Below are positions 3,171 to 25,406 of a stretch of 64,000 nt of DNA, in pieces. The notes beneath the pieces are model-generated. The model saw only the letters and a list, made by a program, of their open reading frames with translations. It searched no databases and was not told where the DNA came from. This DNA comes from Eubacteriales bacterium (GTDB lineage: Bacteria; Bacillota; Clostridia; Oscillospirales; CAG-272): contig JAZOSN010000021.1 of NCBI GenBank assembly GCA_045657105.1, positions 3,655 to 67,654 on the forward strand, given 5' to 3'. Every line of letters starts with the position of its first letter. Positions within the stretch are counted from its first letter, which is position 1. The position numbers were made by a program, and so were the translations under genes.

Positions 3171-4430
3171 TTATCTCACGACAACAGAGCGCAGGGCGCG
3201 GTAGAGATCGTCAACGTCCTGCTTTTGCGAGAATGCCCCGAAGCTTACGCGCACACCTCCGCCGCTTTGATAGCTTCCTACCCTGCGGTGAGCGAGCGGT
3301 GCACAGTGCAGACCGCTTCGCACGCATAGCCCCTGCCTGTCAAGATATTCACCGACCTCTTTGCAGTGTATTCCTTCAATATTAAATAGCATTATCGATC
3401 CGACGCTTTCATTTGGAAGATATATTCTCACCCTCGGCAGAGTCGAAAGCGCGCTTTTTGCATAGCTCACAAGAGAGCTCTCGTGTCTGCCTATTTCTTT
3501 TGCTCCGCGCTCGATAACGTATTTCATTCCCTCGCAAAGACCTGCTATTGCAGGTGTCGGAAGTGTTCCTGCCTCCATTCTGTGCGGAAGAGTTATCGGC
3601 ATACTCCGCTCGGACGAGCTCGATCCGCTTCCGCCGAAATAAAAGGGATCGATGTCGGACGCTCTCACGTTTTCTCCGAGCAAGAGAATTCCCGAGCCCT
3701 GCGGACCGCAAAGCCCCTTGTGACCGGGCGCGCAGATCGCCCACGCCGAGCATCTTTTAATATCTATATCGCTGTTTCCTGCCGACTGCGACGCGTCAAC
3801 GACGAACTTTATTCCCTTTTCGGCGCAGAGGCGTCCTACTTCGTCTATCGGAAGCTCTATCGGCACGATGTTTGATTTGTGGCATGCGACAACGAGCACG
3901 GTGTCGCTTTTTATGCGGCTTTCAATATTTTGCAGTATATTTTCTGCCGTGCCCACGCTCGGATAGATTTCGAGCGTTATTTTCCCCGTTTCAGCAAGAT
4001 GAGAGAGCGGACGGTAAACCGAATTATGCTCAATATCCGATATAAGAACGTGACCGCCGTCCTTTGTCGCCGAAAATATCGCCATATTGAGTGCCTCGGT
4101 CGCGTTGTGAGTAAATATAACGTGCTCAGGCTTTGACGAGCCAAATATCTGTGCGCAGAGCTCTCTCGCCTCGTTTATCTTTTCTCCTGCGCGTCTTGAC
4201 AGAATGTGCGAGCCTCTGCCCGGATTTCCGCCGTACTCGTTTATCGCGCGAAGCATCTCTTCACCGACCTCGCGAGGCTTCGGAAACGAGGTTGCCGCGT
4301 TGTCAAGGTAAACGAGTCTTTCCGGATTTCTCGACAACAGCGGAGTATTTTGACTGTGATTTGTATTTTGTCCATAACTGCCCGCGCCGTTTTTGGGCAT
4401 AGAGTTACGGTAATTTGAACTTCTTTTCAT
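3171..4430 (-). CDS. class V aminotransferase-fold cysteine desulfurase-like enzyme
   Basis: YLDNAATSFPKP, PLP-lysine context APGHKGLCGPQGSGILL, and active-site Cys context RSGLHCAPLAH. It has a low-complexity N-terminal extension of about 38 aa. The exact start is uncertain. Confidence 0.8.
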   Translation of the reverse strand: MKRSSNYRNSMPKNGAGSYGQNTNHSQNTPLLSRNPERLVYLDNAATSFPKPREVGEEMLRAINEYGGNPGRGSHILSRRAGEKINEARELCAQIFGSSKPEHVIFTHNATEALNMAIFSATKDGGHVLISDIEHNSVYRPLSHLAETGKITLEIYPSVGTAENILQNIESRIKSDTVLVVACHKSNIVPIELPIDEVGRLCAEKGIKFVVDASQSAGNSDIDIKRCSAWAICAPGHKGLCGPQGSGILLLGENVRASDIDPFYFGGSGSSSSERSMPITLPHRMEAGTLPTPAIAGLCEGMKYVIERGAKEIGRHESSLVSYAKSALSTLPRVRIYLPNESVGSIMLFNIEGIHCKEVGEYLDRQGLCVRSGLHCAPLAHRRVGSYQSGGGVRVSFGAFSQKQDVDDLYRALRSVVVR

Positions 4431-9803: not shown

Positions 9804-9804
9804 T

Positions 9805-9933
9805 GCCTCCGGCGGCTTTTGCCTCCGGCGGCTCAAACCCTTTTTGAAAAAAGGGGTTTGACAATCCCAAAAACTTTGTCTCCGACGGCTTAAACCCTTT
9901 TTAGAAAAAGGGTTTAAGAATCCCAAAAACTTT
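9805..9933. repeat. tandem palindrome-containing intergenic repeat (partial head plus 57-nt and 56-nt units)
   Basis: Units lie at 9821-9877 and 9878-9933. Each is G(C/T)CTCCG(G/A)CGGCT, then a palindrome centred on CTTTTTnGAAAAAG, then AATCCCAAAAACTTT. A related copy is at 37869-37916. Confidence 0.6.
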
Positions 9934-9982: not shown

Positions 9983-10024
9983 AAAACCGCACAATTCATT
10001 TCTGAATTGTGCGGTTTTTGTTTT
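9983..10024. terminator. bidirectional rho-independent terminator (thyX / giant gene)
   Basis: 12-bp stem CCGCACAATTCA / TGAATTGTGCGG, loop TTTC. It is flanked by AAAA upstream and TTTTTGTTTT downstream. Confidence 0.75.
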
Positions 10025-10034
10025 GGCTTAGAGT

Positions 10035-13000
10035 TTACTGTTGCTCGTCCTCAACACCGATAACTTCAAGAGCGTGTTCAAGGAATTCTGCGATCTGTCT
10101 GTGTCCCGCAGTATTGGGGTGCAGACCGTCCTCCATATAATACTCTCTCGTTTCGTCGGCAGAGGGATCCATATCAAGCTCTGTATAAAGATCTATCACG
10201 TTAAGCGAATACTTATCGCATATAGCCTTAATAGCATTTACGTAGTCTTCAAGCGTGTGTCCGGCGCCGTTCGGAATGTGGTCAAACGTATGTGCCTCAC
10301 CTGTTGCCGAGTTGGTACCGTAGCCGTATCTGTGAAGAGGAGTAATAAATACTATCTCTGCATTCGGATTATTCTCTATAAGTGCAGAAGCTATGATGTT
10401 AAGTGCTCCGTAGAAGGACGTATCGGTCGTATCGTCGATAGTGCCGAGAGGCGTATCGTGACCGTAGTCGTTGGTTCCCATAAAGATCGTTATGAGATCT
10501 GCATCTGCGGGAATATCGCCATATCTGTTTACAAGAGGCTCGTGCTCATCTCCGTAACTGCTCGAAGAGCTTATGCAGCTTCCTGCAACGCCCATACCAA
10601 CGGCAGATTTGAGTTCGAGCATTTTTTCGAGGAGCTCCCAATAGGTATCTCCCTCGCAGTTCACGCCCTCTGTTATACTGTCACCGACGAAAACGGCAAC
10701 CTTATCTGCCCACGGACCCTTCGAATGAACAACCTCACTTGCAACGAAATACTTCGAGAACAGAAGTGCATCGGAATCGCTGGTTATCATAATAATATCG
10801 TGAGCTATTTCCTCGGGAGTTCTTACGTCTGCAAAAATGCTTGCAGAGTAGATCTCGCCCTTGAACACCTGAGCGGAAAGTCTATTGTCGTTCGCTACGC
10901 AGAACGTACTTCCGTCGAAAGGAACGGGAGCATCAAGTGTTATGGTTTCGACAAGCTCTCCGTCAACGAACAGAGATGCCGAAAGTCCGTCTATCGTAAA
11001 TGCGAGGTGTACAGGCTCCTCAGAACGAATATCAACGTTAAAGATGTACGAGTAACTCTTTGAGTTAACCTTATACCACAGACGAGGATTTCCGTTCGTA
11101 TAAATTTCAAGATTCATACGACCGCTCGAAGTGCCGTCGTAGTTTCCGAATATTACACCGCCTCTGTCCGTAATACGAGGTGAAAGCTTGAGAAGTGCCT
11201 CGAAGGTCAAGGGCGCCTTGTTGAAGCTATCATCTATCGCATAGTATCCGCCGTCTTTAAGAGCACCGTCAGTGCTTGTATAATCGTTATGAATTATTCC
11301 GTCCGATGTGAAAGGAACGCTGCAAACGTTTATAAGCTTGCCGCAGGAAGCGCATACGAGTCTGCCAAGACCGTCGCCGTCCTCGGTAGGACTTGTGATC
11401 ATTTCGAATACTACGTTTGTATGAGTGTCAGTTTCGGTAACAAGCTTAGTGCCGAGATAGCTTGTCGAAACAAGGAGTCCTCCTTCTCCTGCCGTCGAGA
11501 TCATATCTTGGGCGATCTGCTGCTCGCTTCTTACGTGGTCGAAGACGTTTACAGAGTATATAACACCCTTGAAATACTGAACATTTCCATCTCTTCCGTC
11601 TCCGCCGATACGGTATCCCATCGTGGACTCAGGCAGCTCAAGCTCAAGCTCTCTGACCTCGGCAAGCTCTCCGTTTACGTAAAGGCTTGCAAGCTTTCCG
11701 TCAACAGTGAGCGCAATATGAACCGGCTTATCACTTCTCACGTCGGTATCAAATCTGCAATCCACCTTCGTAGTGCCGTTTATGAAGTAAAGTCTGAGCT
11801 TACCGTTTGTATAGATCTCAACGTTTATAGGCTGATCGTTATTTCCGTTATTACCGAAGATAACTCCGCCTCTATCGGCATAACCCTTCGGCAGGTGGAT
11901 AAGTGCTTCGAAGGTTACGGGAGTCTTGTCAAGTGTGCAATCAACTTCGCCAATCAGATTGTCCTCAAAGCTCTGTCCGTAGTCGCTCTGCTTTCCGCTT
12001 TCGGTAAAGTAGGTCGAGTAAACGAGTCCCTCTTCACTCGGGCTTACTGCCAGAATATCGGAAGTTATTTCGTCCCAGTAGCGAACGCTCGAGAAGAGAT
12101 TTACCGAATATATAGTTCCCTTGAAATACTGTTCGTTATTTACACGGTGGTCTCCGCCGATAACGAAGCCTTCGGTTATCGCGGGAATTGTAGCTTCAAG
12201 CTCTGCGGTTTCGGTAACCGTACCGTTAATATACAGAGTTGCAAGCAGGTCTTCAACCGTAAGCGCGAGATTTATCGGCTTATCGGAACGCACGTCAGTT
12301 TCAAAGGTATAGCTGTATTTAACTCCGTCTGTTATGTAATACAGTCTGAGCTTACCGCCTGCAAGAATCTCGATGTTTACAGTATCGCTCGATCCGTCCG
12401 TATAGTTTCCTATAATAACTCCTGCGCGATCCGCATAGCTTGTGGGAAGCATAAGGGTTGCTTCGAAGGTCACGGGTGCTTTATCAAGCGCGGGAATCTC
12501 GTTCAAAGTATCCTTTTTAAACGTTTGACCGCTTACCTTGTTTCCTGCAACATAGAGCGGCGAGTTGTTAACGGTAAAGTAAGTAGAATAAACGAGGTCG
12601 GGTGCAGAAACGCCTACATAGCTTACGTCAGAGATGATCTCCTCTGCCGTTCTGACGTCTGCGAAAAGATTTACCGAATAGATCTTTCCCTTGAACGTTT
12701 GCATTCTGTCGGTTCTTATGTCTCCGCCAAGTGCAAAGGGTCTGTCTATCTCGGGAAGAGGATTGGTAACCTCAATGCTTTCCGAGAATTCTCCGTTCAC
12801 GTAAAGTCTTGCTTCGTTGCCGTCAACAGTGACTGCAATATGAACAGGCTCTATCGAGCGAATGTCACGGCTGAATACTACATCGGTTCTTATTCCGTTT
12901 GTGATATAGAACAGTCTTACGCGTCCTTCTGTAAATATCTCAAAGTTGAGTGCATTCTCATTGTCTGCCGCCGAATAGTTACCCATGATAACTCCGCCTC

Positions 13001-16000
13001 TGGACCAGGATTTCGGCTGGAAAAGAATCGTCGCCTCAAAGGTATGCGGAGTTTTGCCTATTGATACGGGAATAGTGGTAGTATCGGTAAAGCTTACTCC
13101 GATATTCGTTTCGGGATCAATAGCAGAACCCGTATATTTCGTTTCCTCGGCTTCTATGACCTTGTCGCAGATAACACATTTCTTATAGCGGATTCCGTGT
13201 TCGGTGGGAGTTGCGACCTTTTCAATTATCCACTGACCGCCGTAGTGAACAGTGTTTATGATCTCTTTGTGTCCGCAGCAGGTACAGACCTTATAAACGT
13301 AACCGTGTTCGGTTTCGGTCGCTTCCTGTCTTTTACTTTCAGAGGCAAAGGTATGTGAAACGAGATCCGTATCCGTTGTGTATCTTGCCACAGTGGAGAA
13401 CACGCTGTTTTCCGAGCAGGTCTTTTCCTTTATTACCAGTGCAAAGTTCGACTGATAATACATAGATCCTCCATGGAGATTAAGCGAGTTGAGAAGCGAA
13501 ACGTAGTAGCGCTGACCGTCCTTCACGTACGAGAATTGAAGATCCTTGTTATGAATAGCGCCGAGCGACCACTCGTTTATCGACTTATATCCAATATCAA
13601 CACCCTCTACCAGATCGTCAAATGTTGTCGGATCGAAGGATTCCATATTTACATAGATCTTATTATTGGGATTTTTATTTTTATGGAATGCATCTATAAG
13701 CATCTTTTCCATCTGCTGTGCAAGAGGGAAAGTTCCGCTATACTCTGCGGCATTCCACGTAAAGAGTATATAGTCCTCAGAGTTGTAAAGCTCTCTGAAA
13801 TACTTGCAATAGGGATTGTATATCTCGCTCCACGAGAGTATATCGCCACCGAACGGAGTGAAATAAAGCTCAAAGACGTCGTCATTTTCGCTTCCGAGAT
13901 AAACAAGACGCTCGTTTTCGGGTATGTCATCACCCTTTCCTGCAAGTATAAGGTCTATTTGACTTGTGGTTTCGACGTTCATTTTATTCTGGAATTCAAT
14001 TATACCCTCCTGATGGCTGTAATTAAGCATCAGTCGCAGGTAGTTGACCGAAACTCGGTATATATCCTCGTGGTCGGAAATTATAGTCGCGGTTTGGAGC
14101 TTCCAGTTGGCGTTATAGCCTGCGCCGTAAATACCGTCAAGGTTAGAGCTTGACGTCCAGACTGCGTTTTTGTGTACCTCGCCGTTCATGTCGAGATAAT
14201 GCGATACGGCACAAAGCTTGGTGTGCATCATATCCGTTCCGCCCTTGCCGCCGTTACTGAGTGTCCAGTCGAAATAGCAGAAGGTAAGATAATCGCTTAT
14301 GGTACCGTAAGGTGCATATTCGGGATCACAGTAATCGTTGACGTAAGCGTCAAAATAGGTTTCAAAGGTGGAAGGAAGCTTTCCTGCACTGTTTATAGGA
14401 TACGCGTCCCTGTGAGCGAGCACGTTTACGTGTATTCCCATTTTTGCCGCAGATACGAGAAGGTAAGCCACGCGAACAAATCCGAATTCGTCGTAATTCT
14501 CATTCGCAAGAGCTCTGGTATATCCAAAATATCTGCTGTTTCGGTTAATATTTACCGCGGTCTGAACCGAGAATCGGTAAGACGCTATATCTATGTGTAC
14601 CTCTTCATCGGGGTTAGCCTTCTTGTAGAGCATCGCCTGATATATCATCAGAGCTTCGCCGACAGTCATATTATGTGCCGTCGAATATTTGGGATAAACG
14701 AAGGTGTCAACCGTGACTCTTCCGCCGTTTATGTTATCAAACACCGTGGTTCCGCGGCTCATAAAGTTAGAGCTGTTATCAAGAACCGGGAATTTATCGT
14801 AGGTCGAATTGATATATCCGTTGCTCGAATTTACGGCAAGGTCAAACACGTCGTTTACAGACGGCGAGGCGTCACCGACCGTGTTCTTTACAGATTCGAC
14901 CGTACTCGTGTAGGTTGAGGCAGAAGGAACCTTCACGCTCTGTGTATTTACGGTAAGTAGGCCTTCTATCGCGCTCTCCCAATAAGCATCGTCGGTAGCA
15001 CCCTGAGTATCAAGATCGGTATGCTTTGCTTTATCTATGTTCAGAACTGCATTAGTGGTATTACCCCATATAATATTTCCGCCGCTCTCGGCAGTATTGC
15101 CCGAAACGCTGAGTTTTGCAAGCGTTACGACCGTACCTGCCGCAGTTTCGTACATAAATCCGCCCTTGTCGGCTTTATTAAGCTCGGCGTTAGTGTTATA
15201 TACATAGGCATCACTCTTGCCCGAAATATACATACCGCCGCCCATACCGCCTGCAACGTTTTCTTTAAAGCTACAACCGTTGAATACCGTCTTTGTTCCG
15301 TAGGTATAAACGAATGCGCCCGCGCCGTTTTCGAGAGTGGTATTTGCAACAAATTCGGTCTTGTATATCTCAGATACCGCGCCCTCGTACAAATACACAC
15401 CGGCACCCATATTAGAGGAGTTGTTGTTTACTGTGCCTGAGTACATTGTAAGCTGACCGAAGCTGCTGTAAATAAATCCTCCGTTTGTTCTTGCGGAGTT
15501 TCTCGATGCGGTAACGTTATTAAGCTTCGCTACTGCATTTGTTCCGAGATAAATTCCTCCGCCGATATATTCACTTCTGTTCTTTGTGAATACACCGCCG
15601 TCTATTTCAAGAGTGGAGCCGACAACCGAGATAGCTCCGCCTGCGCCGTCGGACTTTGTAGAAACCGAGTTGGAAACAAAGGTAACGTCCTTCATAAAGA
15701 CGTCAACTCCTGCGGTAAGCAGAACTGCTCCGCCGTTGTCTTTTGCTTTATTGTTTGCAAAATCCGTCGATTTCAGGGTAAGAACCTTGGTGTCGTTTTC
15801 GATTGCTCTTCTGGTCGTATATATTGCTCCGCCGTTGTCAGCCGAGTTGCCTGTTACGGTAGAGTTGTTTAGAGTTACTCTCGCATTTATATCTATACTG
15901 CTGCTATAAGCAACGTAGATAGCACCGCCGTTTTTCTCCGAGTGGTTGCCCTCTATCACAGAGCCGTCTATTTTAAGCGTTGCGCTTCGTACCGAGATCG

Positions 16001-19000
16001 CTCCGCCGTGCGAGGTCGCGGTGCCGTTTGCGATGCTCGAATTATTTATCGAAACGGTCGATTCGCCTATAATATAGAACGCTCCGCCCTCTCCGCTCGC
16101 TATGCTTCCGTCGAACGAGGTGTTGTTGACTGTGAGATTTGACTTGCGCTCAACACAGATCGAGCCGCCGTTTTCGGCACTGTTCGAAATAAATTCACAG
16201 CCGTCGGTGGTTACGATAGAGCCGGACTCATAGGTGCTGTTAGCACAGTAGAGCGAGATAGCTCCGCCGTCGGTCGCACTGTTTCCTATGAAGCGACAGT
16301 TTTCAAGGTAAACATATCGTGTAACGTAAGCCTGCGTGGATTTGGTAACAAACATCGCTCCGCCGCGTGATTTCGCGGTATTTCCCGAGAAAACGGTGTT
16401 CATTACGGTAAACGTACTCGACGTATGGATAGCTCCGCCGCTTCCGGTAAGAGCCTTGTTGCCTTCAAAGGTCGTGTTTCCGTAGATAACTATTCCGTTG
16501 AGAGTAGAGGTACATATTGCGCCGCCGTTGACCTCTGCAACGTTATCTTTAAAGAGTACGGGAGTCGAGCTTCTGTATCCGATATTAAGTTGGCTTGTCG
16601 CTAAGCTTGCCGAATAGTAAACTCCTCCGCTTACGGTAGCGCGGTTAGCTACGAAGCTTCCTCCGTATATTTTTATAGTTCCGTAGTTGTAAACGATACC
16701 TCCGCGCGCACCCTCGTTGCCCTCGAAATGTCCTGCGTATATTTTCAGGTTGCTTTCGTTGTAGAATACGCCGCCGATAGAGGAATTGCGTCCCTCCTCG
16801 GAAGATGCATCTTCAATATCTACCGAGTTGTTGATAAAGCTTCCGCCGTATATATTAAGACCGCCGAACGGAATTATCGCTACCGATCCTCCGACACGGT
16901 TCGGACGTGAAAGCTTATAATACTCATTGTAGGTTCTCTCGTTTTCGTTCTTATGACAATTCGTAACGGTTACGTTATTATAGACGTTAGCAACTGCTCC
17001 GTTACAAATAAACATTACCGTACCGACTACGTCAACAGTCATATTATCCTTGTTTCCGTCTATTATAAGAAGCGACGGGGTGTCGGACGACGGATTACCG
17101 AGAGTAAGACGCGAGTCTGCCTTTTCGATCATCGCGTTGCTTCCGTCCGCACGCTCACCGACGACAAATATATCTCCGCCAAAATCGGCAGCTCTCGTGA
17201 GCGTGTGACGCGCCGTAGAGAATATTATAACGTCGTAAGTTATATAGAACGTGCGATCTATTTCAAAATCGGCTACTATTCTTATGTTTTTCTTGCCTGC
17301 AAGCAGTGCATCTTCAAGCTCCTTTGCGCTTGAAACGTCAAAGGCACCGCTAAGATCTCCCGCGCTCTCATTTCCCTCTTCGATGTATTCGGGAACATCG
17401 TCGTATATGGTTTTGATCGTAAGCGTTCCGTAAAGTGCTGCTTCCCAGTAGCTCGGCGTATACGACGAATTTGAAGTATCGCTATGCGCCACCTTGTTTA
17501 TATAAAGAGTAGCACCGCTTCCGATACCGTAAATGAACGCGCCCTTAGCCGAGGTGTTATCGGAAACGGTCGTGCCGATTACCGTAGCCTCTGTTCCGCT
17601 TCCGTTCAAGCAGAGAAATCCGCCCTTGCTTGCCGTGTTACCGTTTATAACGACGTTATAAACACTCGCCTTTGCCTTACTGCATACGTACACTGCTCCG
17701 CCGTACGTCTGGGCGGTATTGCCTGTGAACTCACAGATCTGAGTAAGAAGCGAGGTTCCGCTATCCGAAGCGTATACCGCGCCGCCGTTCTTGCCTGCCT
17801 TGTTTCCACTGAACACCGCGGTAAATATTTTCGCCGTAGAATTATCATCTACCGAGATAGCACCGCCGTCAAGAAGTGCACTGTTGGTATTGAAAACCGT
17901 ATCATAAACAACGAGTGTCGATCCCGACGCGTTTATTGCTCCGCCGTTATTAGCCGCGCCGTTTGCGACCATCTGTGTCTGATTGTTTATATACGCGCTT
18001 GATCCGACTATATTGATCGCACCGCCGTTATAGTCGGCATCGTTGCCGGTAAACGACGATCCGCCGATCGAAATCTCAGAGGACTCGGCGTATATAGCTC
18101 CGCCCTCAAAGGCGTATCCGTATTCAAAGGTGTCGTCAGAGGAGAAAAGCTTTGCTCCGCTCACATAAACGGAGGCACCCTTGTCTGCCTCGTTCTTACT
18201 TGCACTGTTTTTGCTCATGGTCACTTTTGCGGCAGCAGCATATACAAATCCGCCGTTTTCAAGTGCCTTATTTAGCGTAGCGTTTGATCCTTCAAGTGTC
18301 AGATCTGCTCCGTTTGAGTATATCGCACCGCCGTTTGTTGCGGTATTAGAGTTAAACGTACAGTTGTTTACCGCAAGAGAAGCGTTCGTTACGTAAATCG
18401 CTCCACCCTCGGTCGCACTGTTTGCTATGAAAACACAGTCGTTTATATCAAACTCGCCGTTTGCAAGATATATCGCTCCGCCGAGCTCGGCAGTGTTTGT
18501 ATTAAAGACAGCACCGACGATGCTTACGTCGCAGTCGGCATTATCAATATAAAGTGCACCGCCCATAGTTGCGCCGTTCGAGGTGAACGTAGCCTCCGAA
18601 AGAGATGCGCTTCCGCCAGCAAAGTAGATGGCTCCGCCGAGAGCGGCAGTATTTCCGAAGATCTCGGACTTTATCTGAACGCTTCCGAGCTCTGCGTATA
18701 TTGCGCCGCCGTTTTCGCTTGCGACGTTACCCGATATATCACAGGAGTCTACTGTGAGCTCACCGAGATTATATATTGCTCCGCCGAGGCGAGCGACGTT
18801 TTCTTTGAGCGAGCCGCCGAGCATATTAAGCATTCCGACGTTATAGATCACTCCGCCCTTGTCTGCACTGTTGCCGCTGAACAGACCGTCGTTTACGTTA
18901 AGAATTCCCTTGTTTAAAATAACCGCGTTGCCAACACTTGTATTGCCCGTGTATTTTCCGCCGTTAATATCGACAGTTGCATTTTCCTCTACGGTAAGCA

Positions 19001-21500
19001 TGCTTCCGTCAGTGCCGCTCATAGCAAGTATACTTACGTTCTCACAGAAAACTGCCTTCGAGGCGCCTGCAACTATAATTGCGGACTGCGACTCTACCGA
19101 TTTTCCGTCTATCAGGAGAAGATCGGTCGTTGCCGATGCCGACAGACCGAGTGTCAGTGTTACACCGCTCTCTAAGATATTTCCTTCACCGTCTTTTCCG
19201 ACAACGAAAAGGCTTCCGACAAACCCTTGTGCACGGGTGAGCGTACAGGGTGTCGTCGAGAATATCTGTGTACTGCTGAGTATATACAGAGTTTCGCTTA
19301 TTTCTATATCGTTTACGATCTTGATATAAGGATCGCCTGCGAGTATCGCCGCTTTAAGTTCCTCAAAGGTCTTAACTACGGTAGCACTCCACATACCGTC
19401 AACGATCTCACCGCTATAATCGGTATAGGCAGGTATCTGCGCGTCGCTTTCTGTCACGCTAAGCTTATTTACTATCGCCGTCGCCCAATAGTCCGAAGGG
19501 AGAGCTCCCTCAACGTCAAGATCAACGTAGTTGTCCTTGTTTATGATAAGCTTTGCTCCTGTGCTGTTACCCCAGATTATATTTCCGCCGCCGCTTGCAC
19601 TGTTACCCGATACAGTAATGCCCGATGCGGTAGTGGTCGTGCCGGTGGTAGTGGTATATAAAAATCCGCCCTTCCCCGCACTGTTGCCTATCGCGGTCAC
19701 GTTATAAAGATCAACTATACTCTTGTTTGATATGAACAGAGCACCGCCGTTGCCGTACGAGGTGTTCTGCGTAAACACGCATGAGTGGATAGTCGTTTTT
19801 ACCGCTCCGGTATAGATAAAGACTGTCGCCGCGTTTGACGTATTGCTTTCAAGGCAGGCGTTGCCGGTAAAGCTGCTTCCGTATATTTCAGAAGTCGCTC
19901 CCGAGCCAAGATATATTGCACTTCCCGCCTTCGAAACGCTGTTTTTTATGTTACTGTTGTACAGTTTAAGATCAGATGCACTACTGTAAATGGCTCCCGC
20001 ATTACCCGTAGCGGTATTGCCCTGCGCGTCCATCTTATTTATAATTGCAGCAGACTCTGCGATCAGGTAAATAGCTCCTGCGGCAGACGCGGTGTTACTG
20101 TAAAACTGCGCTCTGTCTATTTCGAGAGTTGCTCCGTCAGAGTAAATTGCACCGCCGCCCGAGGTCGCACTGTTCTCGCTAAACTCGCAGTTCTTTGCAT
20201 ACGCGCAGGACCCCTCTGCAAGATAAACGGCTCCTGCGCTCGTTGCAGAGTTGGAAGCAAAGCCGACGTTCAGAAGTGAAACGTCGTTTGCTATACTAAG
20301 AGTGTTGTGACCTGATGCGAAGATCGCACCGCCGTTCGTTCCCGCGGTGTTCCCGTTAAACTCCGAGTCGGTGAAATTTATTGCGGAGTAACTTCCGCCT
20401 ACGTATATAGCTCCGCCTGCGCTCACCGAGCTATTTTCCTCGAAGACGGTATCCTGTGCAGAAACTCTTCCCGATGCAAAGATCGCGCCGCCGTTCGATC
20501 CGGCGTGGTTGCCCGAGAAAAGGACTCCGCTGCTTACAATCTCACTGTTTCCGCCGAGATAGAGCTTTGCACCCGTACTTGCAGGCAGATAGATGGCTCC
20601 GCCGGCAGTGCTCGACGTGTTATTTTTTATTTGTGCCGAGTATATGTAGATCGTACGGTAGTTATAGAAAGCTCCTGCTCTGTTTGCAGAGTTGCCCTCG
20701 AAAAGTCCGCCGTAAACCGACAGGGTTGCATAGTTATAGAAGGCTCCGCCGTAGATAGAGGTACCCGAGGTATTTACAGAGTTGTTCGTATATTCTCCTC
20801 CGTAAACGTTCATTTCGGCGTCTTTTGAAAGTATTGCAACTGCGCCGCCTATGTTGCTTGTATTGGAAAGCTCGTAAATGGAATTATGAGCTCTCTCGTT
20901 TCCGACCTTTTTACAGTTAGTGATAACGAGATTATCGTAAAGGTCCGCTTTTGCATTCGGACATACGAAGATCACCGTTCCTACTACGTCAACGGTCATA
21001 TTTTCACTGTTTCCGTTTACGGTAAGCGCACTTGCCGTGTCGCCGTTAAAGCCTCCGACAGAAAGCGTTACCTGCTCTGTGCAAAGATTATCCTCGCTAT
21101 CCTGTCCGACGACGAAAACGTCCCCTGCAAATTCAGGGCTTCTCGTCAGGGTGATGGCACTCTCGCTATAAACGATAGTGTCGCTCTTTACATAGAAGGT
21201 TCTGTCAATGGCAAAATTATCGGTGATGCAGATTGCATCAATATCCTCCGACAGTGCCTGTTCGAGCTCCTCTGCGCTCGAAACGCTCCTGAACGTATTA
21301 GGAAATCCGACAAGATCCCCTTCGCCGATCACCGGCGGAAAGACAGAATCTACATCTCCTGTGTCGTCCGATCCGCTATCCGAGCCACCGGTGGCAAGGA
21401 TCTCCGAAACGGCTGCTACTGCTTGTATCGGTATTATGCTTATAAGCATAAGTATCGCCGATAAAAGCGCAAGAATTCGGGTTAAAAACTTAGTTTTCAT
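10035..21500 (-). CDS. giant secreted multidomain protein (3821 aa): 3x Pmp-type beta-helix modules, PLD-like domain, Cys knuckles, 4x LamG-like repeats, SGNH/GDSL hydrolase
   Basis: RBS AAGGAGAAGG; signal peptide MKTKFLTRILALLSAILMLISIIPIQAVAA. Approximate domain map in nt follows. Beta-helix modules with dozens of GGAIY/GGAIF..N repeats: 19400-21290, 17350-19395 and 14945-17345. PLD-like lobes: 13440-14700, with HTK at 14216-14224 and HNK at 13545-13553. CxxC knuckles: 13141-13315. LamG-like repeats starting (T/A)P(H/V/L)TFEA: 10800-13070. SGNH blocks: GDS 10677-10685, GTNDYG about 10461-10490, DGLHPN about 10112-10130. I see no LPXTG, SLH, dockerin or choline-binding anchor. Confidence 0.9.
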   Translation of the reverse strand: MKTKFLTRILALLSAILMLISIIPIQAVAAVSEILATGGSDSGSDDTGDVDSVFPPVIGEGDLVGFPNTFRSVSSAEELEQALSEDIDAICITDNFAIDRTFYVKSDTIVYSESAITLTRSPEFAGDVFVVGQDSEDNLCTEQVTLSVGGFNGDTASALTVNGNSENMTVDVVGTVIFVCPNAKADLYDNLVITNCKKVGNERAHNSIYELSNTSNIGGAVAILSKDAEMNVYGGEYTNNSVNTSGTSIYGGAFYNYATLSVYGGLFEGNSANRAGAFYNYRTIYIYSAQIKNNTSSTAGGAIYLPASTGAKLYLGGNSEIVSSGVLFSGNHAGSNGGAIFASGRVSAQDTVFEENSSVSAGGAIYVGGSYSAINFTDSEFNGNTAGTNGGAIFASGHNTLSIANDVSLLNVGFASNSATSAGAVYLAEGSCAYAKNCEFSENSATSGGGAIYSDGATLEIDRAQFYSNTASAAGAIYLIAESAAIINKMDAQGNTATGNAGAIYSSASDLKLYNSNIKNSVSKAGSAIYLGSGATSEIYGSSFTGNACLESNTSNAATVFIYTGAVKTTIHSCVFTQNTSYGNGGALFISNKSIVDLYNVTAIGNSAGKGGFLYTTTTGTTTTASGITVSGNSASGGGNIIWGNSTGAKLIINKDNYVDLDVEGALPSDYWATAIVNKLSVTESDAQIPAYTDYSGEIVDGMWSATVVKTFEELKAAILAGDPYIKIVNDIEISETLYILSSTQIFSTTPCTLTRAQGFVGSLFVVGKDGEGNILESGVTLTLGLSASATTDLLLIDGKSVESQSAIIVAGASKAVFCENVSILAMSGTDGSMLTVEENATVDINGGKYTGNTSVGNAVILNKGILNVNDGLFSGNSADKGGVIYNVGMLNMLGGSLKENVARLGGAIYNLGELTVDSCDISGNVASENGGAIYAELGSVQIKSEIFGNTAALGGAIYFAGGSASLSEATFTSNGATMGGALYIDNADCDVSIVGAVFNTNTAELGGAIYLANGEFDINDCVFIANSATEGGAIYVTNASLAVNNCTFNSNTATNGGAIYSNGADLTLEGSNATLNKALENGGFVYAAAAKVTMSKNSASKNEADKGASVYVSGAKLFSSDDTFEYGYAFEGGAIYAESSEISIGGSSFTGNDADYNGGAINIVGSSAYINNQTQMVANGAANNGGAINASGSTLVVYDTVFNTNSALLDGGAISVDDNSTAKIFTAVFSGNKAGKNGGAVYASDSGTSLLTQICEFTGNTAQTYGGAVYVCSKAKASVYNVVINGNTASKGGFLCLNGSGTEATVIGTTVSDNTSAKGAFIYGIGSGATLYINKVAHSDTSNSSYTPSYWEAALYGTLTIKTIYDDVPEYIEEGNESAGDLSGAFDVSSAKELEDALLAGKKNIRIVADFEIDRTFYITYDVIIFSTARHTLTRAADFGGDIFVVGERADGSNAMIEKADSRLTLGNPSSDTPSLLIIDGNKDNMTVDVVGTVMFICNGAVANVYNNVTVTNCHKNENERTYNEYYKLSRPNRVGGSVAIIPFGGLNIYGGSFINNSVDIEDASSEEGRNSSIGGVFYNESNLKIYAGHFEGNEGARGGIVYNYGTIKIYGGSFVANRATVSGGVYYSASLATSQLNIGYRSSTPVLFKDNVAEVNGGAICTSTLNGIVIYGNTTFEGNKALTGSGGAIHTSSTFTVMNTVFSGNTAKSRGGAMFVTKSTQAYVTRYVYLENCRFIGNSATDGGAISLYCANSTYESGSIVTTDGCEFISNSAENGGSICVERKSNLTVNNTSFDGSIASGEGGAFYIIGESTVSINNSSIANGTATSHGGAISVRSATLKIDGSVIEGNHSEKNGGAIYVAYSSSIDINARVTLNNSTVTGNSADNGGAIYTTRRAIENDTKVLTLKSTDFANNKAKDNGGAVLLTAGVDVFMKDVTFVSNSVSTKSDGAGGAISVVGSTLEIDGGVFTKNRSEYIGGGIYLGTNAVAKLNNVTASRNSARTNGGFIYSSFGQLTMYSGTVNNNSSNMGAGVYLYEGAVSEIYKTEFVANTTLENGAGAFVYTYGTKTVFNGCSFKENVAGGMGGGMYISGKSDAYVYNTNAELNKADKGGFMYETAAGTVVTLAKLSVSGNTAESGGNIIWGNTTNAVLNIDKAKHTDLDTQGATDDAYWESAIEGLLTVNTQSVKVPSASTYTSTVESVKNTVGDASPSVNDVFDLAVNSSNGYINSTYDKFPVLDNSSNFMSRGTTVFDNINGGRVTVDTFVYPKYSTAHNMTVGEALMIYQAMLYKKANPDEEVHIDIASYRFSVQTAVNINRNSRYFGYTRALANENYDEFGFVRVAYLLVSAAKMGIHVNVLAHRDAYPINSAGKLPSTFETYFDAYVNDYCDPEYAPYGTISDYLTFCYFDWTLSNGGKGGTDMMHTKLCAVSHYLDMNGEVHKNAVWTSSSNLDGIYGAGYNANWKLQTATIISDHEDIYRVSVNYLRLMLNYSHQEGIIEFQNKMNVETTSQIDLILAGKGDDIPENERLVYLGSENDDVFELYFTPFGGDILSWSEIYNPYCKYFRELYNSEDYILFTWNAAEYSGTFPLAQQMEKMLIDAFHKNKNPNNKIYVNMESFDPTTFDDLVEGVDIGYKSINEWSLGAIHNKDLQFSYVKDGQRYYVSLLNSLNLHGGSMYYQSNFALVIKEKTCSENSVFSTVARYTTDTDLVSHTFASESKRQEATETEHGYVYKVCTCCGHKEIINTVHYGGQWIIEKVATPTEHGIRYKKCVICDKVIEAEETKYTGSAIDPETNIGVSFTDTTTIPVSIGKTPHTFEATILFQPKSWSRGGVIMGNYSAADNENALNFEIFTEGRVRLFYITNGIRTDVVFSRDIRSIEPVHIAVTVDGNEARLYVNGEFSESIEVTNPLPEIDRPFALGGDIRTDRMQTFKGKIYSVNLFADVRTAEEIISDVSYVGVSAPDLVYSTYFTVNNSPLYVAGNKVSGQTFKKDTLNEIPALDKAPVTFEATLMLPTSYADRAGVIIGNYTDGSSDTVNIEILAGGKLRLYYITDGVKYSYTFETDVRSDKPINLALTVEDLLATLYINGTVTETAELEATIPAITEGFVIGGDHRVNNEQYFKGTIYSVNLFSSVRYWDEITSDILAVSPSEEGLVYSTYFTESGKQSDYGQSFEDNLIGEVDCTLDKTPVTFEALIHLPKGYADRGGVIFGNNGNNDQPINVEIYTNGKLRLYFINGTTKVDCRFDTDVRSDKPVHIALTVDGKLASLYVNGELAEVRELELELPESTMGYRIGGDGRDGNVQYFKGVIYSVNVFDHVRSEQQIAQDMISTAGEGGLLVSTSYLGTKLVTETDTHTNVVFEMITSPTEDGDGLGRLVCASCGKLINVCSVPFTSDGIIHNDYTSTDGALKDGGYYAIDDSFNKAPLTFEALLKLSPRITDRGGVIFGNYDGTSSGRMNLEIYTNGNPRLWYKVNSKSYSYIFNVDIRSEEPVHLAFTIDGLSASLFVDGELVETITLDAPVPFDGSTFCVANDNRLSAQVFKGEIYSASIFADVRTPEEIAHDIIMITSDSDALLFSKYFVASEVVHSKGPWADKVAVFVGDSITEGVNCEGDTYWELLEKMLELKSAVGMGVAGSCISSSSSYGDEHEPLVNRYGDIPADADLITIFMGTNDYGHDTPLGTIDDTTDTSFYGALNIIASALIENNPNAEIVFITPLHRYGYGTNSATGEAHTFDHIPNGAGHTLEDYVNAIKAICDKYSLNVIDLYTELDMDPSADETREYYMEDGLHPNTAGHRQIAEFLEHALEVIGVEDEQQ

Positions 21501-21536
21501 AACCTTCTCCTTAAATTAAATAATATTTATAATATA

Positions 21537-21566
21537 ATTATATCATAGTATATATACCGTTGTCAA
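21537..21566 (-). promoter_or_regulatory. candidate sigma-A promoter of the giant gene
   Basis: On the minus strand: TTGACA (rc of 21561-21566), 18 nt, TATAAT (rc of 21537-21542). The region is AT-rich, so alternatives exist. Confidence 0.45.
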
Positions 21567-21629: not shown

Positions 21630-21662
21630 ATCACAAAAGCACCCGTTTTTACAGGTGCTTTT
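21630..21662 (-). terminator. terminator after the GT4 gene
   Basis: Stem GCACC / GGTGC (21639-21643 / 21654-21658), followed on the minus strand by TTTTGTGATTTT. Confidence 0.55.
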
Positions 21663-21665
21663 TAC

Positions 21666-22829
21666 TTATTTTATAACCTTTTCGTATATAGCCATCGCCT
21701 GCTTTGCGACCGACTGCGAGCTGAACTCGCCGGCTCTATCTCTCAGATAGTTTTCGTCAAGCGTATCAAGGCGCGCGTACATTCTCTTAATTGCTTTTGC
21801 AAGATCCTCGGGATCCTCGGTATTGCACATTTCGGCGCAGAGCTCGTCAAGGAAGCCCTCCGGACCCTTACATCTCGTGCAGACGACGGGAACACCTGCG
21901 GCAAGCGCCTCGATAGCGGGAATTCCAAAGGTTTCAATAACCGATGCCATCACGAGAATATCACTTTCACTGAGGTATTTAGCGATCTCATGCGCGTTCT
22001 TTCTTCCGACGAACTCAACGACGTCGTTCATACCGAGCTCGTTTGTGACGCTCCTGTAATGATCCTCCATAAATCCGCCGCCGACGACCGTAAATTTGAA
22101 CTTGCCTATTTCGCCGTTATCACGGAGTATTTTGAGTGCGCGTACTGTGTCGTCAATATGCTTTGGCGGACGCAGCGCGGCAACCGTCGAAAGGCGAAGA
22201 ACGCCGTCGTTTGAGGGAACCTTCGCGTTTGCGGAAAAAATCGAGGTATCGACGATATTCGGAAGAGTTTCGGAAATATATCCGTATTTATCTTTGAAAA
22301 TATCGTTCATATAGTTGCCGACACAGGTGAGGTGTGCATTTTCACAGGCAAATCGAGCGTATTTTTCCTTTGCACCCGTGAAAAAGCTTTCAAAATAGGT
22401 CGCGTGCTCGGTAATAACGACAGGAACCCCATATTTTTTGCCGATAACCGCCGAAGCGTATCCTGCACCGAGAAGAACCTGCGCGTGAATGACATCAGGC
22501 TTTCCGTTTTCCTTTACGTACCGGCAAAAGAGCTTGTCCAGCTTTTTAGTATACGATCTGATAAACGCTCCGTATGCAAATTTCGAATAATCGACCATTC
22601 GCTTTGCATAGAGCGTATATCCCTCATACTCATTTTTATAGGATTTCTTCATAAAGGGATATTTATATACGGTCTTGATTCCCTGCGGATCAACGTATAT
22701 CATATTCACCTTGACCTTTCCGCTTTCGCTCAGCGCGCGGCAAAAGGTCTGATGATATGTGCCGGTTATCTTATCTCTTTCGCTCGGAAACCATGTCGGT
22801 ATCACGAGGACGTGAAGCTTATCTTTCAT
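21666..22829 (-). CDS. glycosyltransferase family 4 (GT-B, group 1)
   Basis: VLVIPTWFPSE at the N-terminus. The C-terminal EX7E region reads SVIETFGIPAIEALAAGVPVVCT. RBS is ACAGGAGA. Confidence 0.85.
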   Translation of the reverse strand: MKDKLHVLVIPTWFPSERDKITGTYHQTFCRALSESGKVKVNMIYVDPQGIKTVYKYPFMKKSYKNEYEGYTLYAKRMVDYSKFAYGAFIRSYTKKLDKLFCRYVKENGKPDVIHAQVLLGAGYASAVIGKKYGVPVVITEHATYFESFFTGAKEKYARFACENAHLTCVGNYMNDIFKDKYGYISETLPNIVDTSIFSANAKVPSNDGVLRLSTVAALRPPKHIDDTVRALKILRDNGEIGKFKFTVVGGGFMEDHYRSVTNELGMNDVVEFVGRKNAHEIAKYLSESDILVMASVIETFGIPAIEALAAGVPVVCTRCKGPEGFLDELCAEMCNTEDPEDLAKAIKRMYARLDTLDENYLRDRAGEFSSQSVAKQAMAIYEKVIK

Positions 22830-22926: not shown

Positions 22927-23886
22927 TTAAAATTCAAATTTGTTTCCGTTGACCGTGACCTGGACATTATCCGAGGGCTCGACTTTAAGTGCCGAGAACG
23001 GACTGTTGTCATAGCTCTCGACCGTGATCTTTCCGCCTTGAAGATCGATCACCTGCTCTGCCTTTACTGCCGAGTCAACACTGCTGATCGAAATATCTCC
23101 GCCCGAAATGATAACGTTCGTATAAGCCTGAATTCCCTCGTCGCCTGCGGTGATCTTAACGCTTCCAGCCTTGATCTCCACAAAGCCGAGCGTTGCATCG
23201 TTATCCTGAGTAGATTTAAGTCCGTCGCCGGCGGCGGTAACGGTAACGCTTCCGCCCTTGACCTCGAGCGAATCCTTACCTTTAATTCCGTGATTTGCCG
23301 CAGTTACGGTAATATTTCCGCTTTCGATATTGACGTCGTCCTTTCCGGTTATGCCGTCGTTATAATTTGCGGTAACCGTCAGAGAGCCCTCTCCCATAAT
23401 AAAGAGGTCGTCCTTTGAGAAAATAGCCGCATCGGGTTCGTCCTCGCCGACGGGAAGAATATAACTGCCCCCGTCCGAAACGAGGTTTGTAGTATCCTTT
23501 TCAAGAACTATATAAAGATTTTTCGCCTGCTTGCAGTATATCGGGGCGTTGTTTGAGCAGTGAATATCAACTCCCGAAAGAACGAGGAAAACGTCGCCTT
23601 TACTGAGAGTGTCCACTATTATCTGTCCGTCGGTAAGCTTACCGCTGAGCTTATAGGTGCCGGGCGCGTTTACCGTCAGAACACTGCCTGATACCGTGAG
23701 TCCGGACGTATTGTCCGCCGATATGGTGTTTTCAGAAAGCGTGATGTTTACGGGATCATTTGAGGGCTCAGGAAGATTTCCGTCGCCCGGAACAGTGCTA
23801 TCCTCAGGCGCGGTACAGGAAAATGCAAAAACAGTCAAAGAAGCGATAACGAGAAATAGTGCCGAGATCTTTAATATTTTTTTCAT
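22927..23886 (-). CDS. Cthe_2159-type carbohydrate-binding beta-helix lipoprotein
   Basis: ATG 23886 with AAAGGAGG as RBS. Lipobox VFAFSC. ..GTYKLSGKLTDGQIIVDT.., AAIFSKDDLFIMGEGSLTVTANYNDGITGKDD, and repeated G.ITVTA..GIKGKD / GDGLKS turns typical of the family. Confidence 0.75.
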   Translation of the reverse strand: MKKILKISALFLVIASLTVFAFSCTAPEDSTVPGDGNLPEPSNDPVNITLSENTISADNTSGLTVSGSVLTVNAPGTYKLSGKLTDGQIIVDTLSKGDVFLVLSGVDIHCSNNAPIYCKQAKNLYIVLEKDTTNLVSDGGSYILPVGEDEPDAAIFSKDDLFIMGEGSLTVTANYNDGITGKDDVNIESGNITVTAANHGIKGKDSLEVKGGSVTVTAAGDGLKSTQDNDATLGFVEIKAGSVKITAGDEGIQAYTNVIISGGDISISSVDSAVKAEQVIDLQGGKITVESYDNSPFSALKVEPSDNVQVTVNGNKFEF

Positions 23887-23966
23887 AACTGCCTCCTTTA
23901 TATTGACAGGCAAAGCCCTTGCCCGTCAGATAATATATAATATTCTACCACCTCACGGTGTATTTG

Positions 23967-25313
23967 TCAAGAAACGCGCGTAAAGAGCGAAGAGGTAAGC
24001 GAGATCGAAACGTCAAGCGTTTCGCCGCCGCGCTCGACCTTGAAGGTGACCTCGTCACCCTCGGAAAGCGACAGAATAAAGTCGATAACGGTAAAGCGTC
24101 TGTTTACCTCGCGACTGACTCCGTTGCAGGACACCGCGATAATAACGTCGCCGACCAAAAGCTTTCCGTCAGATGCAGAACCGGATGTGACCTCGGATAC
24201 GGTCACCTTTTCCTGTATCACTGTCTTCATATTTTCCTTATCAAAGACAGAACAAAAATCCTGCGCCTTCAAGAGAACACCGAGCGTGGCCTTATAAACT
24301 CCGCTTTTCCCTTTGTTTTCATAGTTGCTTATCACGTTTTCTGCAACACTGTAAGCAATATTCGACGGAATCGCATATCCGATATTTTCTATTTCACCAG
24401 ATTCAAGCTTGGCGTTCACGATGCCGATAAGATGTCCGTTTCGGTCAAAGAGTCCGCCGCCGCTGTTTCCGTGGTTTACGGGAGTATCAATACGCATAAG
24501 GCGCATCTCGGTATTTCCCACGCCGCTCGTCGCCTTCATTTTAACGTATTCCGAGTCAACGCTAACGACACCCGACGTAACAGATATTCCGTCACTTTCG
24601 GGATTTCCGATTGCAACGGCAAGCTCTCCCGCCGCCACATTATCCGAGTTTGCAAGCGTTATCTCTGTAACGTTTGCGCTCTTTATCACATCACTTCCCT
24701 CGACTTTGAGTACCGCAAGATCGTGTGTCATACTGCCGCCGACGAAGGTCGCGTCTATTCGCATTTCGTTATAGTGGAGTCCGTAAAGATAAAGCTCTAT
24801 TTTCTTGCTTATTCCGTTTTCGGATATGCAGTCTGCATCGTAAACAACGTGATAATTGGTTATTATGTAGGCATCTCCGCGCTCCTTGTCGAGCTTATAA
24901 ACGACGCCTGCTCCCGAGCCCGAAAACTCACTGATGATCGGCTCTCTTCCCTGTCCGACGTACTGCTTTTGCTCGAACGTAGCGAAAATACTAACCGCCG
25001 AGCGGATCGCAAGAGAGGCAGCCATCGATGCATCGCTTCCGTACGAGGTACCGTCTTTGCCGTTTTCTCCGTCCTTACCGTTCTCGCCGTCCTTGCCGTT
25101 TTGCCCGTCGACTCCGTCTTTTCCGTCAGAGCCGTCCTTGCCGTTTTCGCCTTTCAGGCTTTCGAGCCACTGCGCTTCGCTTCCCTCAAAGCCGTTACGG
25201 ACGGCAATATCGTACGCCGACTCACCTGCACACGAAGCGAGCGATAGAGTGAGCGTCACGATTACGAGAAGCAAGGAGATCATCTTTTTAAGAGATATTT
25301 TAAAGCCTTTCAT
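23967..25313 (-). CDS. HtrA/DegP-family (S1C) serine protease lipoprotein with a collagen-like G-X-Y stalk and a C-terminal PDZ domain
   Basis: Lipobox LSLASC. 11 G-X-Y triplets (GENGKDGSDGKDGVDGQNGKDGENGKDGENGKDG). Catalytic contexts TNYHVV, HDLAVLKV and GNSGGGLF. PDZ-like VSEVTSGSASDGKLLVGDVIIAV. The start is taken at the ATG 2 codons inside the track ORF. Confidence 0.85.
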   Translation of the reverse strand: MKGFKISLKKMISLLLVIVTLTLSLASCAGESAYDIAVRNGFEGSEAQWLESLKGENGKDGSDGKDGVDGQNGKDGENGKDGENGKDGTSYGSDASMAASLAIRSAVSIFATFEQKQYVGQGREPIISEFSGSGAGVVYKLDKERGDAYIITNYHVVYDADCISENGISKKIELYLYGLHYNEMRIDATFVGGSMTHDLAVLKVEGSDVIKSANVTEITLANSDNVAAGELAVAIGNPESDGISVTSGVVSVDSEYVKMKATSGVGNTEMRLMRIDTPVNHGNSGGGLFDRNGHLIGIVNAKLESGEIENIGYAIPSNIAYSVAENVISNYENKGKSGVYKATLGVLLKAQDFCSVFDKENMKTVIQEKVTVSEVTSGSASDGKLLVGDVIIAVSCNGVSREVNRRFTVIDFILSLSEGDEVTFKVERGGETLDVSISLTSSLFTRVS

Positions 25314-25406
25314 AAGCACACCGCCATCAGTTTTTAATATAATACCTTACAAAGGTGTATTTTCGATGAAAAAACACCGAAATTTAAAGTAACGAATATA
25401 TTATAA

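Follow-up and report, generated by a model that had tools for sequence, protein, structure and literature searches.

A giant secreted protein of a gut Oscillospirales bacterium joins Pmp-type beta-helices to a predicted, divergent domain of the phospholipase D superfamily

We analyzed a stretch of 64,000 nucleotides (hereafter the window) from an assembly of a Eubacteriales bacterium (GCA_045657105.1, contig JAZOSN010000021.1) and focused on one giant gene, at positions 10035..21500 on the minus strand, whose product has 3821 amino acids. By predicted fold and by motif, the central domain of this protein belongs to the phospholipase D (PLD) superfamily, as a divergent clade outside all curated models. 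This PLD-like domain is a rare family. In every locus checked, it was fused to a Pmp-type beta-helix or encoded right after the gene of one. The component folds were already known; what is new here is the unannotated PLD-superfamily clade and its linkage to the beta-helix. We tentatively favor, as a quite possible reading, that the protein is a modular enzyme-adhesin of a ruminant-gut Oscillospirales bacterium, which would act as an extracellular phosphodiesterase and esterase on a phosphodiester-bearing glycoconjugate.

Domains were identified with Pfam and NCBIfam profiles, a motif scan, a sequence search of the PDB, AlphaFold models and Foldseek. Searched directly against Pfam, NCBIfam and the PDB, the central region (amino acids, aa, 2210-2718) gave only noise (TetR_C, transketolase), even at E values up to 10. 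A profile of 51 sequences of this domain had no match in the PDB. The AlphaFold2 model of these 509 residues, which was based on an alignment of 50 homologues, reached a predicted local distance difference test (pLDDT) of 92.4 and a predicted template modeling score (pTM) of 0.93. Every one of the 50 PDB matches listed by Foldseek was a member of the PLD superfamily. The best was the PLD of Serratia plymuthica, 7E0M (PMC8004604), with an E value of 9.3e-12 and a probability of 1.0; further ones were human PLD1/2, PLD3/4, PPK1, plant and Streptomyces PLD and Tdp1. In the viral library BFVD, the top matches were a poxvirus F13-like lipase and a PLD-domain protein.

At the sequence level, the link to known PLD profiles appears to be transitive, through distant relatives that match Pfam PLDc_2 (PF13091). 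A profile search of 1.84 billion representative proteins revealed only 201 relatives (clusters) of the PLD-like domain. Ten of the distant relatives were scanned, and all of them matched PLDc_2, three above the gathering score. P0191, P0199 and P0200, with E values of 2e-20 to 1e-18 on the family profile, scored 29.5-37.9 bits (cutoff 27), and the seven others were slightly under the cutoff. In the window protein, the motif of lobe 1 reads MH2426-T-K2428-LCAVS...SSS-N2453-LD and that of lobe 2 reads H2650-N-K2652-DLQFS...NSL-N2674-LH. The residues H2426/K2428/N2453 and H2650/K2652/N2674 aligned with the HxK...(G)SxN motifs of the PLDc_2-positive relatives. Our placement of the domain in the PLD superfamily is therefore based on the fold, the bridge through the PLDc_2 relatives and the alignment of the motifs. 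A comparison of lobe 1 with lobe 2 by hhalign gave no significant signal of internal duplication. An earlier note on this DNA, made from the sequence alone, had proposed a two-lobed PLD-like domain at this place, and both the fold of the region and the alignment of its catalytic residues agreed with that proposal.

The putative catalytic residues are strongly conserved. The H, K and N of both lobes, together with D2455, were invariant in all 86 family sequences from genome loci. The H, K and N were also invariant in two further alignments (A1 and A2), and they persisted in relatives of only 18-28% identity. In comparisons with orthologues, the PLD-like domain was the best-conserved region of the giant protein (85% identity to L006 and L040); the identities were 52-69% for the beta-helix modules, 49-67% for the LamG repeats and 64-72% for the SGNH domain. 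The invariant residues and the slow evolution of the domain suggest that catalysis is under selection.

We surveyed the loci of this family, taking one genome per species. Eighty loci were found, and all of them were in Oscillospirales-type Clostridia assemblies (Acutalibacteraceae, Ruminococcus, Faecousia and Oscillospiraceae). So far, the family is confined to gut Oscillospirales, that is, Acutalibacteraceae, Ruminococcus, Faecousia and relatives. No relative of the PLD-like family was found in the viral contigs scanned. In 34 loci, the gene encoded a fused giant protein with one to five cap-beta-helix units (usually three), followed by the PLD-like domain, a knuckle and one to seven LamG repeats. 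In the remaining loci, the PLD-like protein was separate and had its own signal peptide or lipobox. For 48 out of 48 unfused loci whose upstream DNA was available, the PLD-like start codon was preceded, within ~26 nt, by the end of a cap/beta-helix gene of the same orientation; the exact gap is uncertain in L001, L002, L042, L076 and L079, where a search limited to ATG gave no start. A beta-helix gene was also directly upstream of a PLD-like relative of 28% identity. These adjacent genes and the fused loci imply that the PLD-like enzyme might be functionally coupled with the beta-helix.

Some loci showed additional features. In a distant version of the gene pair (28% identity), a conserved open reading frame (ORF) of 248 aa without a Pfam match was located 10 nt after the PLD-like gene (L088, 4733-5479; L089, 5367-6113). 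The gene contexts of the distant relatives P0200 and P0191 were uninformative. Two copies were present in one assembly for L012/L021, L017/L051, L019/L060, L046/L085 and L050/L059, as two fused genes, one fused and one split, or two split. Fused and split forms therefore seem to be paralogous lineages that coexist in one genome.

All of the 49 stand-alone relatives that started with Met had signal-type N-termini, and 22 plus P0018 had a lipobox-like motif. Many of the unfused PLD-like proteins ran on as Big_2-LamG-Metallophos, with or without fn3 and dockerin. A dockerin was found in L043 and L084, and three SLH domains in one distant family member. Across the relatives, the modules accompanying the enzyme were LamG, Big_2, fn3, Flg_new and dockerin. 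The signal peptides, the lipoboxes and the dockerin or SLH domains suggest an extracytoplasmic location for the family. P0060 is an independent fusion of PLD-like and SGNH domains behind a beta-helix gene, and its SGNH domain is 55% identical to that of the window. A two-enzyme logic thus appears to recur, in which the PLD-like domain is combined with Metallophos or SGNH. The Metallophos partner domain had no sequence relative in the PDB.

The earlier note did not recognize the architecture of the giant protein. We likewise found no published description of the family or of the pairing of beta-helix and PLD, and public annotations read "hypothetical protein". However, the architecture is not unique, since it is conserved in at least 34 Oscillospirales species, and the SGNH end is a minority variant. 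The note also pictured an enzyme behind a long beta-helical stalk, with lipids or glycans of host, mucus or competitors as putative targets. The stalk picture is weakened by the unfused relatives, in which the beta-helix gene is followed at once by a gene of its own for the PLD-like enzyme, made there as a secreted protein or a lipoprotein.

The features of the giant gene, all in window coordinates, are as follows.
10035..21500, minus strand: complete ORF of 3821 aa (ORF call)
21537..21566, minus strand: promoter-like site, TTGACA, 18 nt and a TG-extended TATAAT, with 12/12 matches (sigma-70)
21507..21512, minus strand: ribosome-binding site AAGGAG, 6 nt upstream of the ATG at 21500
21414..21500, minus strand: signal peptide, aa 1 to ~29, with MKTKFLTR, a hydrophobic core and a cleavage site predicted from the sequence between QAVA and A
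19401..21320, minus strand: beta-helix module 1, aa 61-700 (Pfam, NCBIfam, motifs, AlphaFold, weak Foldseek matches)
17346..19400, minus strand: beta-helix module 2, aa 701-1385 (36-37% identity to modules 1 and 3; Pfam, NCBIfam)
14946..17345, minus strand: beta-helix module 3, aa 1386-2185 (45% identity to module 1; Pfam, NCBIfam)
13347..14873, minus strand: predicted divergent two-lobed PLD-superfamily domain, aa 2210-2718 (model, Foldseek, distant relatives, invariant H/K/N)
13131..13328, minus strand: two CxxC knuckles, C2739/C2742 and C2775/C2778 (motif scan, orthologue alignment)
11451..13100, minus strand: LamG/concanavalin-like repeats 1-3, aa 2801-3350 (Pfam Laminin_G_3)
11301..11423, minus strand: third CxxC knuckle, C3383/C3386 (motif scan, orthologue alignment)
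10746..11300, minus strand: LamG repeat 4, aa 3401-3585 (Pfam, repeat identity)
10071..10709, minus strand: SGNH/GDSL hydrolase, aa 3598-3810 (Pfam Lipase_GDSL_2, PDB 3DC7)
9983..10018, unstranded: bidirectional terminator, a 16-bp stem-loop with A and T runs on either side

This order of domains is the one that the earlier note had read, and its boundaries (about aa 60, 700, 1385, 2185, 2690, 2790, 3570 and 3600) agree with ours within a few tens of residues. The signal peptide is the sole hydrophobic segment of the protein, which is probably exported through the Sec pathway. The computed mass of the mature protein is ~403 kDa and its isoelectric point (pI) is 4.5. As the note had stated, surface anchors were not seen: the motif and hydrophobicity scan revealed no LPxTG and no C-terminal transmembrane segment, and Pfam revealed no SLH, dockerin or CWB domain in the 3821 residues.

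The first 2,200 residues contain 21 strict GGA[IVLM][YFHC] motifs. Pfam Chlam_PMP repeats were detected with an E value of 4.6e-29, and the NCBIfam POMP_repeat in 10 stretches. The identity among the three beta-helix modules is 36-45%. In the AlphaFold model of module 1 (aa 55-700; pLDDT 94.5), the chain forms one continuous right-handed three-stranded beta-helix of ~22 coils. Judged from this model, the conserved "cap" region before the GGAI(Y/F)...N rungs appears to be merely the start of the helix. The Foldseek matches of module 1 were weak and generic for right-handed beta-helices (best E value 2e-4, template modeling score, TM, 0.2-0.4). They comprised tailspikes, PL6 and GH28 enzymes, PfbA, phi29 gp12 and phage Andhra.

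Pfam Laminin_G_3 (PF13385) was detected in four stretches, with an overall E value of 1.8e-55 and a match for each repeat. The LamG repeats are 41-51% identical to one another. The CxxC motifs are at aa 2739, 2775 and 3383, and the first two knuckles each lie in a unit H-x(~20)-C-x2-C. The Cys residues of the knuckles and the His ~20 residues upstream were conserved in 7 orthologues. The knuckle may be a small module that recurs in this system of beta-helix and PLD-like proteins. In alignment A3, which contains stand-alone beta-helix homologues of ~900-1100 aa, the consensus N-terminus has the pattern G-x5-C-x2-C-x3-E, which is similar to the CxxC knuckles in the giant protein.

At the C-terminus, Pfam Lipase_GDSL_2 (PF13472) matched aa 3604-3801 with an E value of 2e-21, covering profile positions 1-177 of 178. 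The GDS block is at 3606 (nucleophile Ser3608), GTND at 3675 and DGLHPN at 3791 (D3791-x-x-H3794). The nearest solved relatives are lp_3323 of L. plantarum (3DC7, E value 1.5e-27), 7BXD and 3BZW. The blocks that the note had read by eye thus align with the full Pfam model and with 3DC7. A more distant PDB match was 6V8I (E value 1.6e-13), the SGNH domain of the tail-associated lysin (Tal gp59) of staphylococcal phage 80alpha. The domain is a member of a family that is common in Clostridia, with SGNH proteins of roughly 217-400 aa, and its relatives carry the JGI label "lysophospholipase L1-like esterase". Among the fused proteins, only that of the window and its 4 closest orthologues have the SGNH end.

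In the reading that we favor, the gene's own strong promoter drives the production of a secreted modular enzyme-adhesin of ~403 kDa. The three tandem Pmp-repeat right-handed beta-helices would form an elongated rod. If they are stacked end to end, ~70 coils of ~0.48 nm would give roughly 30-35 nm. The PLD-like core would work as an HKD enzyme. The His of one lobe would attack the phosphorus to form a phospho-histidine intermediate, the His of the other lobe would serve as general acid/base, and the Lys and Asn residues would stabilize the phosphate. Water or an alcohol would then resolve the intermediate. The four LamG repeats might hold the glycan part of the substrate, and the C-terminal SGNH esterase might de-O-acylate this same substrate. 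The target would be on a surface or a particle, either a glycopolymer or glycolipid from the cell envelope of other microbes, or dietary or host material. A glycoconjugate is favored because the accessory modules are glycan-oriented, and the Metallophos and SGNH partners suggest that phosphate or acyl decorations are removed step by step. The kinship of the SGNH domain with a phage tail-associated cell-wall lysin is consistent with this, and the resemblance of the modeled beta-helix to tailspikes, polysaccharide lyases and phi29 gp12 gives a weak hint in the same direction.

Several observations weigh against this reading. The structural matches of the PLD-like domain are remote (TM 0.4-0.5, 10-14% identity), and they do not separate the lipid, nucleic-acid and other PLD subfamilies. 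In each lobe, a Ser takes the place of the Asp in the canonical HxK(x)4D (S2433 in 85 of 86 sequences and S2657 in 71 of 84). The canonical spacing HxK(x)4D(x)6GSxN is also altered, by a hairpin of ~12 residues inserted ahead of S-x-N. Tdp1-type "HKN" members of the superfamily likewise lack the Asp. The domain is acidic (pI 4.8, net charge -27), as are the family (median pI 5.0) and the whole protein (pI 4.5). It would therefore fit poorly to polyanions such as teichoic acids and DNA, and better to neutral or zwitterionic lipids. In two of the four SGNH-bearing orthologues (L006 and L008), GDS has changed to GDG, with the GTND and DGLH blocks kept, so the esterase domain there is probably inactive or repurposed. 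Because of this Gly at the nucleophile position and the lack of SGNH in most fused members, the esterase step seems dispensable. As for the rod, a preprint (bioRxiv 10.1101/2024.10.30.621056) indicates that AlphaFold2 may over-confidently predict beta-solenoids from repeat sequences. Nevertheless, the Pmp repeat is known independently to form beta-helix coils, according to two articles (PMC11166332, PMC10715098). Finally, the genes flanking the giant gene in the window, including those for GT4 and the Cthe_2159-family protein, had no counterpart beside the orthologues. The giant gene is therefore a self-contained unit, and its context yields no clue to a pathway.

Part of this evidence would also suit a classical lipid-degrading enzyme, which we regard as possible but rather unlikely. 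The PLD-like domain would then remove head groups from phospholipids, sphingolipids or glycophospholipids of plant, host or bacterial origin, and the SGNH domain would be a lipase or lysophospholipase acting on the acyl chains. The beta-helix and LamG would only dock the protein on membranes or particles, with the purpose of harvesting choline, glycerol, fatty acids and phosphate. The best structural matches are indeed genuine phospholipases D (7E0M, human PLD1/2, the plant and Streptomyces enzymes and the poxvirus F13-like lipase), and the pI of 4.8 suits zwitterionic lipids more than polyanions. The Metallophos superfamily includes acid sphingomyelinase and lipid phosphatases, which we counted in favor. 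The JGI label of the SGNH relatives points the same way, but it is a generic COG name. However, LamG arrays, Big_2, fn3, dockerin and beta-helices are typical of glycan-directed enzymes, not lipases. In addition, 22-23 of the 49 stand-alone relatives are lipoproteins attached to the membrane of the producer itself, an awkward place for a phospholipase, and a plain lipase gives no reason for the obligatory beta-helix partner.

That partnership is what a transferase would explain, although we consider this unlikely. Through a phospho-histidine intermediate, the PLD-like domain would form or remodel a covalent bond between the beta-helix protein and a lipid of the membrane or a polymer of the wall, and would thus be a dedicated surface-anchoring or maturation enzyme. 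Even at 28% identity, the beta-helix and PLD-like genes remain strictly linked, and the two are probably coupled in translation. The beta-helix proteins and the giant protein have no known anchor, many of the PLD-like partners are lipoproteins at the membrane surface, and PLD enzymes catalyze transphosphatidylation. If this is true, the family would be a new two-component surface system of Oscillospirales, with a new anchoring chemistry for Gram-positives in which these proteins lack sortase signals, and the giant fused gene of the window would be its single-chain version. Against this, we know of no precedent, no conserved acceptor motif was identified at the C-termini of the beta-helix proteins, and the recurrent LamG, Metallophos and SGNH partners would be left unexplained.

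The presence of PLD3/PLD4 exonucleases and Tdp1 among the structural matches raises the question of an extracellular nuclease of the Nuc or PLD3/4 type, which would degrade DNA or RNA and whose products would be dephosphorylated by Metallophos in the relatives. A nuclease with a phosphoesterase is a known extracellular pairing. These structural matches are no better than those to lipases, however, and a net charge of -27 (family median pI 5.0) makes the domain strongly acidic. SGNH and LamG partners would also make no sense for nucleic acids. We therefore think a nuclease very unlikely.

It is slightly more doubtful still that the protein is a purely structural adhesin or surface-layer protein, in which the PLD-like and SGNH domains are inactive binding modules. 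The change from Ser to Gly in the SGNH domains of L006 and L008, the change from Asp to Ser in the HKD motifs and the perfect consensus promoter, which suggests a high-abundance structural protein, would fit. Against this, all 86 sequences and even relatives of 18-28% identity keep the His, Lys and Asn of each lobe, and no other region evolves as slowly as the PLD-like domain.

A contact-dependent antagonistic toxin, in which a CdiA-like filament delivers a PLD toxin analogous to the Tle5 type into competitors, is highly improbable. A long beta-helical filament is combined with an enzyme here, and PLD-type effectors are known from type VI secretion. However, conservation is highest in the enzyme and lowest in the filament, whereas polymorphic toxins show the reverse. 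The enzyme domain does not lie at the C-terminus but inside the protein, no immunity-like gene lies downstream (the neighbor is the convergent thyX), and Pfam revealed no TPS, LXG or other delivery domain. A toxin of this type was thus largely refuted.

The gene is repetitive, its source is metagenome-like and an exact-sequence look-up with the whole protein returned no record in the public collection, all of which could raise the suspicion of an assembly chimera or a mis-joined repeat gene. We consider this next to impossible. By self-BLAST, the internal DNA repeats have at most 65% identity (over 408 nt), and no exact repeat is longer than 17 nt. Full-length colinear orthologues with identical domain order were found in four independent assemblies (L006, L007, L008 and L040, from goat, roe deer and other gut samples), and 30 further assemblies have this order without SGNH. 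The low identity of the internal repeats and the colinear fused genes in 34 independent Oscillospirales assemblies exclude a chimera, which the earlier note had named as a possible refutation. A megablast search against plasmids gave no match.

The ORF is uninterrupted across its whole length, and the promoter, strong ribosome-binding site and shared terminator that the earlier note had reported were all located. The terminator hairpin follows directly after the stop codon of the giant gene and is common to the convergent thyX. On the other side, a terminator-like hairpin at 21662..21635 parts the giant gene from the upstream GT4 gene. The giant gene is a transcription unit of its own. Between the stop codon of thyX and the terminator (9804-9918), there are two copies of a 57-nt unit that are 85% identical. 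Each unit contains a palindrome, AAACCCTTTTT..AAAAAGGGTTT, preceded by TGCCTCCGGCGGCT. No other copy of the palindrome AAACCCTTTTT..AAAAAGGGTTT was found within the window, where 0 matches are expected by chance. The units may be a small intergenic repeat element or additional terminators.

Upstream of the giant gene, and also on the minus strand, are genes for a GT4 glycosyltransferase (21666-22829), a Cthe_2159-family beta-helix carbohydrate-binding protein (22927-23913, E value 3.9e-75) and an HtrA-type protease with Trypsin_2 and PDZ domains (23967-25319). Close to the N-terminus of the protease is a short stretch like a collagen triple helix (aa 57-90), which scored 27.4 bits, just over the cutoff of 27.2 bits. 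At 27010-29376 (minus strand), a protein of 788 aa combines Phage_lysozyme, SH3_3, BspA-type LRR and a type I dockerin. Because of this dockerin-bearing muramidase, the organism should have a cohesin/dockerin display system.

This family links a clade of PLD with apparently conserved catalysis to Pmp-type beta-helix proteins, of whose role little is known outside Chlamydia. The giant proteins are among the largest surface proteins of abundant uncultured gut Clostridia and, judging by the promoter, are probably well expressed. Their substrate would reveal how these Clostridia attack or bind phosphodiester-containing lipids or glycans of the diet, the host or their neighbors. The fused, split and domain-swapped (SGNH versus Metallophos) variants provide a natural experiment on which activities cooperate.

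Some known systems share parts of this protein. The multi-module cellulosomal enzymes of Ruminococcaceae belong to the same taxonomic setting; Big_2, LamG, fn3 and dockerin are found in relatives of the PLD-like protein, and the dockerin-bearing lysozyme is in the same window. Unlike cellulosomal proteins, the giant protein has no dockerin by Pfam, and no glycoside-hydrolase or carbohydrate-esterase family assignment was obtained for it. Phage tailspikes and depolymerases, phi29 gp12, PL6 and GH28 have right-handed parallel beta-helices of similar length, a likeness at the level of the fold class only; no catalytic site was identified in the beta-helix module. The SGNH hydrolases of the lp_3323 type (3DC7, 7BXD and 3BZW) and gp59 of 80alpha (6V8I) share with the window domain a full-length SGNH fold and all catalytic blocks. 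These nearest solved relatives are themselves uncharacterized, whereas the window domain forms the C-terminus of a giant protein and its nucleophile is lost in two orthologues.

The GGA(I/L/V) and FxxN repeats, which make up the coils of a right-handed beta-helix, are shared with chlamydial Pmp and other POMP-repeat adhesins (PF02415 / TIGR01376). In contrast to these, the window protein has no autotransporter barrel by Pfam, a Gram-positive host, three tandem helices each with its own "cap" and a PLD-like partner. We rejected its membership in the Pmp autotransporters, as the repeat is shared but Pfam detected no autotransporter domain and the C-terminus is the SGNH domain. Compared with two-HKD PLD enzymes, the central domain has only 10-14% identity, no direct curated match, Ser in place of Asp and a hairpin of ~12 residues, and it is embedded in an extracellular protein of 3821 aa. 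Like them, it is predicted to have a single-chain two-lobed fold with one HxK...N motif per lobe. Its chemistry is probably that of PLD enzymes and would proceed via a phospho-histidine intermediate.

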